The notes beneath the pieces are model-generated. The model did not search any database. It was given only the letters and a program-made list of their open reading frames with translations, and was not told where the DNA came from. Made by a program: the position numbers and the translations under genes. From positions 1 through 35,136 of the forward strand of contig JAGCNK010000172.1 in assembly GCA_017645985.1 (NCBI GenBank): DNA of 35,136 nt, written 5' to 3'. Shown in pieces: positions 8,245-13,367 of this stretch. This stretch comes from Bacteroidales bacterium. GTDB lineage: Bacteria > Bacteroidota > Bacteroidia > Bacteroidales > UBA3824. The number at the start of each line of letters is the position of its first letter. Within the stretch, counting starts at the first letter, position 1.

Positions 8245-8760
8245 TTATTCTTTGTATTGATGACCCGGACTCAGCAGTGTGGTTCTGAACATAAGCCCTG
8301 AATCTATAATTGCTTCTTTTTTAAATAGATAGTCGATGCTGCTCGCCTTTTGTTCTATAAAGAACATACAGCCGTAATTTAATAAATTTTTATTGTTTGA
8401 CAGCGTAAGAATCTTCATTTTTTTTAGTTTTTCCTCTAATAATTCGTTTGATATTTCAGCAGAATGGTCGATGAACACCACTAATGCGTCGTCGATGGCC
8501 GTGTTGTCGTTGTATTCTCTTACGGTGATAGGTTTGTTGTTGAATGTCTGCGATTTAAGCGAGTTTGAGATTTCGGTAAAAGGTTCTGGTTTCTTGGCTG
8601 CTATATATATTATAAAGGTGTCCTGCGGCAGAGGTTCTGGCCAGTACACATAGTGGGCAAATTTGATTATGTTCTGGTAGTCGAATCCCTGCGCCGTGGC
8701 TGATGTGCTCAGGAGCAGGGCGTATGCGGTAAAGATTATATATGTTAGTAGTTTTTTCAT
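8245..8760 (-). CDS. YfiR/DUF4154-like periplasmic protein
   Basis: A signal peptide (MKKLLTYIIFTAYALLLSTSATAQ) is present. The layout is collinear with YfiR as I recall it: IIKFAHYVYWPE, then a short beta-alpha segment, ILTLSNN...YGCMFFI, and a C-terminal ...GLMFRTTLL. The start ATG overlaps the upstream stop as ATGA (8757-8760). Confidence 0.6.
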   Translation of the reverse strand: MKKLLTYIIFTAYALLLSTSATAQGFDYQNIIKFAHYVYWPEPLPQDTFIIYIAAKKPEPFTEISNSLKSQTFNNKPITVREYNDNTAIDDALVVFIDHSAEISNELLEEKLKKMKILTLSNNKNLLNYGCMFFIEQKASSIDYLFKKEAIIDSGLMFRTTLLSPGHQYKE

Positions 8761-11462: not shown

Positions 11463-13367
11463 CTATTGGTTTAAAATCTGTTGGTCGGTAAGCTTCTCGT
11501 TTTCTTTCTTGAGCTTTTCGATCTCCTTTTGGTATTTTTTGATTTCGTTGTTTTTCTGCGCGTTCTCCTTTTCGAGCTGCTGTATGCGGTGCGAGAAATC
11601 GTCGAGACGCTTGCCTTCCTCTTGCAGCTTGAAGAGGTTTTTGGCGTTTTCCTTCACATACGATATAGTGCTGGCGATGTCCTCGGCAAGGTGCTCGATA
11701 AACTTTATACGATAGTCTTCGAACTTGTCGGTGCGGCACAGCTCCAGAATGCCGTAGATTTCGTCTTTGAGCATCAGCGGCACTACAATAAGGTGTCCGG
11801 GCTTGGTGAATCCGAATCCCGAACCGATAGTAATGTAGTCGGCTGGAATGTCGTCGATTATCTGCATAGTTTTTTCAACCGCGCACGTGCCCACGATGCC
11901 TTCGTAGAGGCTGATTTTTTTCTGAACGAACTTCTTGTTGTCGGCGGCGTAGGTGGCCTTCATTTCCAGATATATGTCGTCGGGATTGTCGTCAACGTAG
12001 AGGTACATGGCGGCGTAGTTGGCTTCCATATAGTGGATAAGGTTGCGCGTGGTTTCGTCGCAGAGAGTGTCGATGTTGTTGTTGTTTTTGCGCAGAATGT
12101 CGCCGAACTCTGCCAGACCGATGTTGATCTTGTCCTGAATCTCGTCGGCCTTGCGGCGTTCGCGGTACGATTCGTACTGCTGTTCGAGATTCTTCTTCAT
12201 ATTGATGAGCGAGATGCCGAGCTCGTCGTTTTCGCTCAGCAGCTCTATCTGGTTTTCGGTCTTGTCGGTTCCGATGTCTTCGGTAAATAGCTGTTTCTTC
12301 TTCAGATTGTTGATAAACGCGGCAATCTTCTTTGCCATAATGTTCATCTCGCTGTTGCTGTTCTCGTTGATGTCGGGCGGGGTGAGTTCGCCTTTGAGCA
12401 TCTTCTCCAGGTAGCCGTTCATCTTCTCTATCGGGTGGTTGACCGATGAGAAAAGCATCAGGAAGAATGAAAGTCCGAGAATAATCACCGAAATCTGCAC
12501 CGCTGCCACTATCGTGTTGGTGCGTTTCTTCTTTTCGGCACGGAGAATGTCGGATTCGATGATAAGCTCGTCGATGTCGTTTTGCATAGTCTTGATTTGC
12601 GCCACAGCCTCGCCCTTGTATCCGTCGTTGTTGGCAAGACCTAGCAGAAGCTGTTTTGAGAACACCAGGTTGAATGTCATGCGGTATTCCGACAGCTGGT
12701 CCATCATTTTCGACATCTGGTATTTGATCAGTATGTTCGACGTGTTGGTGGATTTCAGTATGTTGTTGATACCGTCGATTTGCTTATTAAATTTTTCGTA
12801 ATGCTCTATGCTGCTGTTGTCTAAGAAAGCCTTCTCGCTCTGGCAGGCGTCGTCAAACATCTTGCTCATACCGGCGAGGGTGAACTGGAAGAGAGTCTTG
12901 CGCACGGTGTTGCGGTCGGTGGTGAGCCGTCCGGCGTCTTCGGTGAGCTCGTTGAGGTCTTCTTTTATTTTGGCTATCTCGCTTATCTTTATCTGATAGT
13001 TGTCGAACTCTTCGCGGAGGATCGAAATTGACTGCGCGGTCTTGCGGTTCAGTTCTGGCTCCACTTCGGAGAGTGTCTCAATGCCTTTGTCGATACGGGT
13101 GCACAGCTTGTTGATTTCCGAAATGAGGGTGTCCTCTTTCTCCTTGTTTCGTGCCGAGGAGTAGAGTCCGAAGAGCTCGTATTGCAGGTTTCGTATCTCC
13201 GCAAGCTCGTTTTTCATCTTGGTCTCGGTCTGATAGCTGGCGTCTATCTTGTTGTAGTTAGAGGTCAGATATATGAACGACAAGCCTGTAAGTACGGCGT
13301 ATGCCGCAAAACAGATGAGCATTATCCTGAATTTTAATTTTACCGATAGTTTTTCGGGTGTGTTCAT
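11463..13367 (-). CDS. Membrane receptor: helical-bundle periplasmic domain - TM - HAMP - GAF - coiled coil, with no catalytic output domain (paralog of 8757..11447)
   Basis: The tracked ORF starts at a TTG (13412) that lies inside the promoter match. The first ATG (13365-13367, MNTPEKLSVKLKF...) immediately precedes TM1. GAF spans about 11649-12140 and shares strings with the neighbour (EGIVGTCAVEK, IPADYITIGSGFGFTKP, VPLMLKDEIYGILEL, IASTI). The C-terminal 60 aa is a K/E-rich coiled coil. A 15-nt gap separates it from the next gene. Confidence 0.75.
   Translation of the reverse strand: MNTPEKLSVKLKFRIMLICFAAYAVLTGLSFIYLTSNYNKIDASYQTETKMKNELAEIRNLQYELFGLYSSARNKEKEDTLISEINKLCTRIDKGIETLSEVEPELNRKTAQSISILREEFDNYQIKISEIAKIKEDLNELTEDAGRLTTDRNTVRKTLFQFTLAGMSKMFDDACQSEKAFLDNSSIEHYEKFNKQIDGINNILKSTNTSNILIKYQMSKMMDQLSEYRMTFNLVFSKQLLLGLANNDGYKGEAVAQIKTMQNDIDELIIESDILRAEKKKRTNTIVAAVQISVIILGLSFFLMLFSSVNHPIEKMNGYLEKMLKGELTPPDINENSNSEMNIMAKKIAAFINNLKKKQLFTEDIGTDKTENQIELLSENDELGISLINMKKNLEQQYESYRERRKADEIQDKINIGLAEFGDILRKNNNNIDTLCDETTRNLIHYMEANYAAMYLYVDDNPDDIYLEMKATYAADNKKFVQKKISLYEGIVGTCAVEKTMQIIDDIPADYITIGSGFGFTKPGHLIVVPLMLKDEIYGILELCRTDKFEDYRIKFIEHLAEDIASTISYVKENAKNLFKLQEEGKRLDDFSHRIQQLEKENAQKNNEIKKYQKEIEKLKKENEKLTDQQILNQ

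Follow-up and report, generated by a model that had tools for sequence, protein, structure and literature searches.

The window analysed here is a 35,136-nucleotide stretch of DNA from a Bacteroidales genome (GenBank assembly GCA_017645985.1, contig JAGCNK010000172.1). On its minus strand, from position 13367 to 5925, the open reading frames (ORFs) define four closely packed genes in the order A, B, a YfiR-like gene, and a hybrid histidine kinase gene. The subject of this analysis is the first two, A (11463..13367, 634 amino acids, aa) and B (8757..11447, 896 aa), both of which encode receptors without an enzyme domain. The finding is broader than this pair, as A and B are members of a very large, undescribed receptor family.

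Layout of the locus and architecture of proteins A and B

All features of the locus described below lie on the minus strand. Orthologue starts place the beginning of gene A at the ATG at position 13367 rather than at a TTG further upstream. A candidate promoter element, TATCTTTG (TAnnTTTG, which we take to be the Bacteroidetes -7 consensus), was read from the sequence upstream of gene A at 13410..13417. Genes A and B are separated by 15 nucleotides (nt), while the stop codon of B and the start codon of the YfiR-like gene overlap as ATGA, which suggests translational coupling.

The YfiR-like gene (8245..8760) encodes a secreted protein of 171 aa recognised by Pfam DUF4154 (E = 1e-15); its NCBIfam YfiR-like matches stay below cut-off. 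The kinase gene (5925..8213) starts 31 nt past the YfiR-like stop. Its product of 762 aa was resolved by Pfam into a transmembrane (TM) segment, a periplasmic domain of ~120 aa, a second TM segment, and HAMP, PAS, HisKA, HATPase, and receiver domains, and its orthologues match CHASE8. An initial annotation, made from the sequence by itself, had given the coordinates of A and B correctly. It had also placed B directly upstream of the kinase, which has to be corrected, as the YfiR-like gene intervenes.

Protein A begins with a periplasmic, all-helical sensor (aa ~38-282, 12522..13256), flanked in a hydropathy scan by TM1 (aa 11-37) and TM2 (aa 283-314). The AlphaFold2 (AF2) model, Foldseek, and hydropathy identify this sensor as a double four-helix bundle. 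Its region is modelled with a predicted local distance difference test (pLDDT) of ~85-94, and the best Foldseek matches are PilJ, the HBM domain of McpS (TM-score to target 0.66), and the TorS sensor. Two HAMP-like helical hairpins follow (aa 315-427, 12087..12425), recognised by AF2, by a weak HAMP_2 match, and by a profile match to the TM2-HAMP region of Tsr; the AF2 helices in this part span residues 249-324, 340-366, and 382-427. The family-specific GAF domain (aa 431-568, 11664..12077) matches Pfam GAF_2 at E = 7e-14, with the same span in the genome scan, and its lid region is modelled with pLDDT below 50 (residues 487-528).

The C-terminal tail of A (aa 569-634, 11466..11663) is a coiled coil according to the AF2 model (a single helix, 553-633), a heptad test, and the orthologue alignment. 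Hydrophobic occupancy of its a/d positions is 0.70, compared with 0.51±0.05 in shuffled sequences, and it keeps one steady heptad register. Among the 31 aligned orthologues of A (621-644 aa, 49-89% identity), the first 30 residues of the tail are conserved, with the string KENxKNLFKLQExGKRLDD. A histidine in this tail (FSHRI) that resembles that of a DHp domain was considered and rejected, as it is not conserved and the orthologue consensus reads YTKRL.

Protein B carries a periplasmic dCache domain (aa ~44-323, 10479..11318) between TM1 (aa 12-43) and TM2 (aa 324-350), the two TM segments found by hydropathy. The assignment comes from AF2, Foldseek, and a profile match to the Protein Data Bank (PDB) entry 3lib (E = 6.5e-5). 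In the AF2 model, built from an alignment of 38 sequences (pLDDT 74), residues 13-315 form a mixed alpha/beta fold, matched by Foldseek to the dCache domains of chemoreceptors and kinases (3lib, 6d8v, 7prq; TM-score to target ~0.75). Two HAMP-like hairpins (aa 351-472, 10032..10397) are indicated by a weak Pfam HAMP match at 348-402, by matches to the Af1503 HAMP, and by AF2 helices at 316-367, 385-412, and 428-472. The family-specific GAF domain (aa 477-616, 9600..10019) matches Pfam GAF_2 at E = 4e-14. The closest solved GAF in Foldseek is that of PtsP (3ci6), presumably a metabolite sensor.

The GAF domain of B is joined by a connecting helix (aa 617-677, 9417..9599; AF2 single helix 599-677) to a PAS domain (aa 678-777, 9117..9416), which is only weakly matched by Pfam PAS_9 (E = 0.049) and has a PAS-type fold in AF2; many of its residues are invariant among orthologues. 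The protein ends in a 100-residue AF2 helix (aa 779-879, 8811..9113) with an a/d hydrophobic occupancy of 0.74 (0.51±0.04 in shuffled sequences), a steady heptad register, and no histidine. In the 38 aligned orthologues of B (883-908 aa, 52-93% identity), this helix contains an invariant basic motif, KAxxSxxFxKxELEKRIxKxxKIExxLKxK (aa 839-870, 8838-8933). When the motif was sought elsewhere in the genome and among close family representatives, it was found only in B orthologues.

A and B are paralogues (BLASTP E = 1e-36); their alignment covers 339 residues, starting at TM2 and ending shortly after GAF, at 26% identity. In both, the second hairpin between TM2 and GAF contains a HAMP AS2-like string, D/N-x-(L/I)-G-x-(S/A)-L-x-x-M. 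Pfam matches to HAMP, dCache/PDC, and PAS are below threshold in both proteins, and these domains are backed by the AF2 models and Foldseek. The arrangement proposed in the initial annotation, a chemoreceptor-like input half (dCache or helical bundle, TM2, tandem HAMP) followed by GAF, is borne out by Pfam, AF2, and Foldseek. The same is true of the PAS domain in the longer protein and of the heptad-rich tails in both, as judged by the AF2 fold at 678-777 and the heptad test. The GAF strings it listed as shared are present in both proteins, except that the spacer written as VPL....YG is six residues long, not four.

The cysteine of the shared string GxCAxEK is the single conserved one, several paralogues lack it, and weak PDB matches to 1f5m and 3ksf were obtained (E ~0.05). 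One A orthologue has been named free methionine-R-sulfoxide reductase (COG1956) by one source. This is a GAF-fold enzyme with conserved catalytic and resolving cysteines.

No kinase, methyl-accepting chemotaxis protein (MCP), phosphatase, cyclase, or DNA-binding domain was found in A or B by Pfam (E<=0.1), NCBIfam, PDB profile searches, or AF2. NCBIfam returned nothing relevant, and neither HisKA nor HATPase was matched in Pfam, NCBIfam, or the PDB profile searches. Single-sequence and profile searches against all PDB sequences gave dCache, HAMP, and GAF matches, while the tails gave coiled-coil noise only. The MCP hairpin (PF00015) had no match at E<=0.1 in either protein, and the AF2 tails are single helices without a hairpin. 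This confirms the initial expectation that no cryptic DHp/CA, MCP signalling, or DNA-binding domain would be found.

A and B share the MCP-type topology of a periplasmic ligand-binding domain, two TM helices, and a membrane-proximal HAMP. Each has its own start, signal anchor, and stop, as had been noted initially and as the ORFs and hydropathy show. Each also has ~50 orthologues, all from uncultured Bacteroidales, of constant length and 50-93% identity; mean column identity in the alignments of A and B is 70% and 71%, respectively. As initially maintained, the two genes are not fragments of one frameshifted kinase gene. A and B are intact, chemoreceptor-shaped inner-membrane receptors without an enzymatic or DNA-binding part.

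A family of HAMP-GAF receptors

For working purposes, family membership was defined as a full-length match at E<=1e-70 to A3, a profile of the HAMP2-GAF core with 243 positions. A and B match it at E = 6.9e-97 and 4.1e-101, respectively, partly by construction, as both are rows of the profile. Their paralogy and cross-matches to P0056, P0057, and P0113-P0117 provide independent support for membership.

In the genome carrying the window (2.0 Mb, 62% complete), 17 GAF_2 matches were found. At least 13 of these loci have a common layout, in which a variable sensor precedes HAMP, a GAF of close similarity, a helix, and from none to three PAS domains. The inputs comprise dCache_1, dCache_2/sCache_2, Cache_3-Cache_2, 4HB_MCP, PDC, or two TM helices only. 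The ends differ as well, with one protein stopping 13 residues past GAF, one ending in a hemerythrin domain, and one in a SpoIIE/PP2C phosphatase, the sole catalytic fusion found in the family. The cores of A and B are ~27-42% identical to those of the other paralogues. The duplication proposed in the initial annotation therefore holds insofar as A and B are paralogous, but they are not a private pair and belong to a set of 13 or more family members that this genome encodes.

Some of these paralogues were recovered in more than one form. Two near-identical copies of a HAMP-GAF-PAS-PAS-SpoIIE gene lie on contigs C29 (18807-20519, 17871-18662) and C177 (3-2417). The C29 copy is split into an ORF of 571 aa and a separate SpoIIE ORF of 263 aa, which could reflect a frameshift, strain variation, or an assembly artefact. 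Contigs C202 (2-1918) and C177 (2483-4138) carry what appear to be the 5' and 3' parts of one 4HB-HAMP-GAF-PAS-PAS-long-coiled-coil gene. Their overlap differs at a few residues, suggesting strain heterogeneity in the assembled genome.

Among 1.84 billion proteins, profile A3 retrieved 6172 cluster representatives at E<=1e-30, the best 150 of which scored between E ~1e-93 and 1e-100. The closest representatives extend 17 to 1865 residues past the core. In the 41 of them with the longest extensions, Pfam detected no HisKA, HATPase, GGDEF, EAL, MCPsignal, SpoIIE, or receiver domain, whereas PAS was present in all 41. Local kinase, receiver, and MCP profiles, which as a control found 22, 24, and 13 reading frames, respectively, in the genome of the window, had no match in the 149 closest representatives checked. 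The nearest relatives are thus not kinase fusions (0 of 149), and this contradicts the earlier premise that HAMP-GAF-coiled-coil units usually form the N-terminal end of long sensor kinases.

When one genome per Bacteroidales family was examined (n = 151), 71 had a match at E<=1e-25 and 54 passed the stricter limit of E<=1e-70; copy numbers reached 18 or more. In a phylum-wide sample, the family was found in one of 120 other genomes. It is almost confined to the GTDB order Bacteroidales, and a cultured species that has it is Salinivirga cyanobacteriivorans. No description of the family was found in the literature on HAMP-GAF, on dCache-HAMP-GAF output, or on chemotaxis in gliding Bacteroidetes, and no family name exists for it in Pfam or NCBIfam. 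Publications retrieved for SiaC in Bacteroidetes dealt with sialidases and had no bearing on it. Its sensor varies and its HAMP-GAF core is constant, which is the logic of chemoreceptors with the core in place of the MA hairpin.

The lid of the GAF domain, P..Y..I.SGLG...P, does not vary among 12 paralogues and distant representatives, nor do ~14 further positions. The I-x-S-G-L-G part of the lid (window positions 9780-9800 in B, aa ~562-568, and 11820-11840 in A) is reminiscent of D-S-S-G-L-G, the loop phosphorylated in STAS anti-sigma antagonists; the fold differs, and the resemblance may be due to chance.

A second motif, EExxA[S/T], mostly EELQAT, occurs within 35 residues past the core in 104 of 148 close representatives. 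It was present in none of 38 B orthologues (the connecting helix of B itself lacks it), two of 31 A orthologues, and one of 13 paralogues in the genome of the window. With respect to this motif, A and B form a divergent branch; they are otherwise ordinary family members with divergent tails. The post-GAF helix of the family has the near-invariant acidic consensus QEEEMRQNxEELQATQEE, which includes EExxA[S/T], and this motif resembles the methylation consensus of MCPs; an example lies on contig C79 of the same genome as the window (L010; aa 568-573).

Gene neighbourhoods of the cassette and of the family

The four-gene cassette of A, B, DUF4154, and a CHASE8-type hybrid kinase was present at all six loci compared, namely the window and five further loci with a B orthologue 53-67% identical. 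No SpoIIE/PP2C domain occurs in A, B, or their six cassettes. The gene downstream of the kinase varies. In the window it is a STAND-TPR gene (AAA_16, 1495 aa, 1519-6006) that overlaps the 3' end of the kinase, while elsewhere a 142-aa ORF, a pseudouridine synthase, a MORN-caspase, or a flavin reductase was found. The STAND-TPR gene was accordingly rejected as a cassette member, as it is not kept downstream at the five other loci. Farther along the window, two tandem true MCPs (22026-26107, dCache_1 plus MCPsignal) match PF00015 at 1e-23 to 1e-26, and a SpoIIE-type phosphatase ORF lies at the right end (33935-35134).

Across Bacteroidales, DUF4154 genes regularly adjoin a downstream receptor, and at 16 of the 30 best loci this receptor carries a kinase core, so that YfiR and kinase constitute a standard two-gene unit. 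Judged by this gene order, A and B look like a lineage-specific addition to it. In eight other lineages (L070-L077), DUF4154 lies directly upstream of a 4HB-like-HAMP-GAF-(PAS) receptor of 546-716 aa, with no kinase nearby. The N-terminal sensors of A, B, and the kinase showed no similarity in phmmer to those of these YfiR-adjacent GAF receptors. DUF4154 was also seen fused to SpoIIE on contig C70 of the same genome as the window (807 aa) and upstream of an MCP at L061.

The contexts of 39 further family loci from 24 genomes were also surveyed. Approximately 25 had no signalling neighbour, about four adjoined or lay near a kinase, four had a GAF-SpoIIE paralogue or DUF6272/SiaC, and five to seven were tandem arrays.

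One family member closes a che operon in the genome of the window (contig C11, L034; 5273-14740), where the order is CheA, CheW, CheR, a sensor-less kinase of 301 aa, CheD, CheB, a receiver, and the GAF-PAS3 member. The latter has 760 aa, with two TM segments, HAMP, GAF, and three PAS domains. This order, including the sensor-less kinase, is kept in five other family-level lineages (L078-L082), except for the receiver gene before the terminal member. In the che operons of all six lineages, STAS-like and CheY genes precede CheA, and a kinase-receiver gene often lies 3' of the terminal 2TM-HAMP-GAF-PAS3 gene.

The member that ends in PP2C is followed by DUF6272, SiaC, and ABC transporter genes. 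Parts of this type of partner switch are expanded in the genome of the window, with ~40 SpoIIE/PP2C reading frames, 13 SiaC, and 12 DUF6272 (SiaB-like) genes, and up to 23 SiaC copies were counted in related genomes.

The family and CheW are strongly associated: among the 151 genomes, 50 contained both, 21 the family only, 7 CheW only, and 73 neither. Che proteins as an obligatory partner were rejected, as four genomes with 6-13 family copies have no CheW. Every one of the 54 genomes that match the family at E<=1e-70 has SiaC, four without CheW among them, as do 14 genomes without the family. Both co-occurrences are leads only, as they are confounded by shared ancestry.

Proposed function and comparison with known systems

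We consider the chances to be even that A and B are accessory co-sensors that act on the hybrid kinase of their cassette by protein contact. The co-transcribed CHASE8-type kinase would be their most probable target, a view to which, on the basis of gene order, we give at most an even chance. In such a mechanism, binding of an external ligand would shift TM2, and the two HAMP units would relay this shift to GAF and the following helices, as in other HAMP receptors. The long helices after GAF are of a type expected to form dimers, and the output would be an altered protein-protein contact rather than catalysis. The YfiR-like periplasmic protein, whose gene immediately precedes that of the kinase, would act on it as well, so that A and B might feed two further ligand inputs into one phosphorelay. 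The invariant basic terminal helix of B is the best candidate for a docking surface for the kinase, given that its motif is invariant in B orthologues and found nowhere else.

Action in trans on the hybrid kinase, already suggested in the initial annotation, fits both the A-B-YfiR-kinase cassette at six of six loci and the ATGA overlap. Other members that adjoin a kinase speak in its favour, namely those at about four of the 39 surveyed loci and the che-operon member, which accompanies a sensor-less kinase of ~300 aa in six lineages.

Several observations count against it. The link to this particular kinase is inferred from gene order, and within one fairly narrow lineage (B orthologues share 52% identity or more). 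Extra inputs are not needed by the kinase, which is already equipped with a periplasmic sensor, HAMP, and PAS. Most of the surveyed loci have no signalling neighbour, which suggests that partners across the family are encoded elsewhere. Some members end ~13-45 residues past GAF or the core, so in these the GAF core, not a tail helix, must carry the output. In addition, the YfiR-like protein might contact A or B instead of, or besides, the kinase, which is conceivable in view of the DUF4154-GAF receptor units of the eight other lineages.

A wider proposal, which we regard as possible but rather doubtful, is that the HAMP-GAF core, together with the helix, PAS, or coiled coil behind it, constitutes an undescribed output device, the Bacteroidales counterpart of the MCP signalling domain. 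Dozens of enzyme-less receptors in each cell would use it to steer separate enzymes purely by docking; in the cassette and in the che operon these would be histidine kinases, at other loci a PP2C/SiaB/SiaC switch, and the helix of B would dock the CHASE8 kinase.

The absence of a signalling neighbour at most family loci also leads to an explanation in which the partner of A and B is itself encoded elsewhere. The best candidate for this partner is the HAMP-GAF-PAS-SpoIIE paralogue with its SiaB/SiaC-like switch; through the shared core, A and B would form mixed oligomers with this paralogue, and the link to the kinase would be one of co-regulation only. This is a serious rival, although we judge it unlikely, with perhaps a quarter of our confidence behind it. 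An enzyme-less family gene lies directly upstream of a GAF-SpoIIE gene on contig C177 and, in other lineages, at L097 and L102, and nearby at L108, and DUF6272 and SiaC lie 3' of GAF-SpoIIE on contig C29 and at L097. The presence of SiaC in every genome with a strong family match, with or without CheW, and the marked expansion of SiaC, DUF6272, and SpoIIE in the genome of the window point the same way. However, phylogeny and lifestyle confound this pattern; SiaC also occurs in 14 genomes that lack the family, and both CheW and DUF4154 follow the same clades. SiaC, DUF6272, and GAF-SpoIIE are absent near A and B in all six cassettes, and core identities of 26% between A and B and ~27-42% to other paralogues are low for promiscuous mixed dimers.

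A different possibility, considered improbable, is that the GAF domain is the working part. Its lid would bind a cytoplasmic small molecule, which would be combined with the periplasmic signal or held and released at the membrane, and the coiled coils would serve for dimerisation only. The invariance of the lid and ~14 other positions, the existence of members that end just past GAF or the core, and PtsP as the closest solved GAF agree with this. Nevertheless, the lid of A is modelled at low confidence, and the terminal helix of B, its PAS domain, and the conserved cassette are left unexplained. Adaptation of A and B as methyl-accepting proteins, by CheR and CheB at the glutamate pair of the post-GAF helix, is very improbable. 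The EE..A[S/T] motif is frequent in close representatives, the genome encodes CheR, CheB, and CheD, and a family member closes its che operon; yet the motif is missing from all B and nearly all A orthologues, and genomes with 6-13 family copies have no CheW. Slighter still is the chance that A and B are decaying remnants of kinases or chemoreceptors, or one frameshifted gene, for which only the lack of an output domain speaks. This is refuted by the conservation data, which include full-length orthologues of constant size down to ~50% identity, invariant motifs within the tails, a start, signal anchor, and stop in each gene, and thousands of clusters in the family.

Returning to the proposal that A and B act as co-sensors of the hybrid kinase, the four-gene cassette is one of few places where a candidate target adjoins family members, so the question can be tested directly. 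In the genome of the window, these receptors are as numerous as chemoreceptors, with 14 core matches compared with 13 MCP and 22 kinase-core reading frames. If docking on separate enzymes holds true, current domain-based censuses would miss a large part of the sensory circuitry of Bacteroidales from the environment and the gut, and would tally these proteins as sensors without a pathway.

When compared with known systems, a resemblance to SiaABCD of Pseudomonas aeruginosa (the PP2C phosphatase SiaA, the kinase SiaB, and the phosphoprotein SiaC) is seen in the one paralogue of A and B that has the same core with SpoIIE/PP2C, followed by DUF6272 and SiaC. In contrast, A and B themselves have neither a PP2C domain nor Sia-type neighbours, and no diguanylate cyclase is involved.

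The cassette is closer to YfiBNR/HmsCDE, in which the periplasmic YfiR represses the CHASE8 receptor YfiN. A DUF4154 gene lies directly upstream of a receptor with a TM-~120-aa periplasmic-TM-HAMP layout and CHASE8-matching orthologues, and the order yfiR-yfiN is mirrored by the DUF4154-receptor order in Bacteroidales. The output, however, is HisKA-HATPase-REC and not a GGDEF cyclase. The operon has no YfiB gene, the sole OmpA-family gene being a divergent PD40-OmpA two genes away, and the cassette contains two co-transcribed enzyme-less receptors in addition.

With MCPs, A and B share the membrane topology, the repertoire of periplasmic sensor folds, and HAMP after TM2. Like MCPs, the family is present in many copies per genome that combine differing sensors with an unchanging cytoplasmic module, and its genes are often tandem or orphan. 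A and B differ from the two MCPs of the window in lacking the signalling hairpin, their constant module being the HAMP-GAF core, and genomes that lack CheW can still carry the family.

Accessory third-component sensors of two-component systems include UhpC-UhpB, IgaA-Rcs, YycH/YycI-WalK, and TorT-TorS. Like these, A and B have no catalytic domain and are encoded beside a histidine kinase, and such proteins are thought to modulate their kinase by contact. In contrast to them, A and B come from a huge paralogous family whose members are mostly not kinase-adjacent. They are also predicted to be complete, receptor-like dimers that contain the transmitter domains HAMP, GAF, and PAS.

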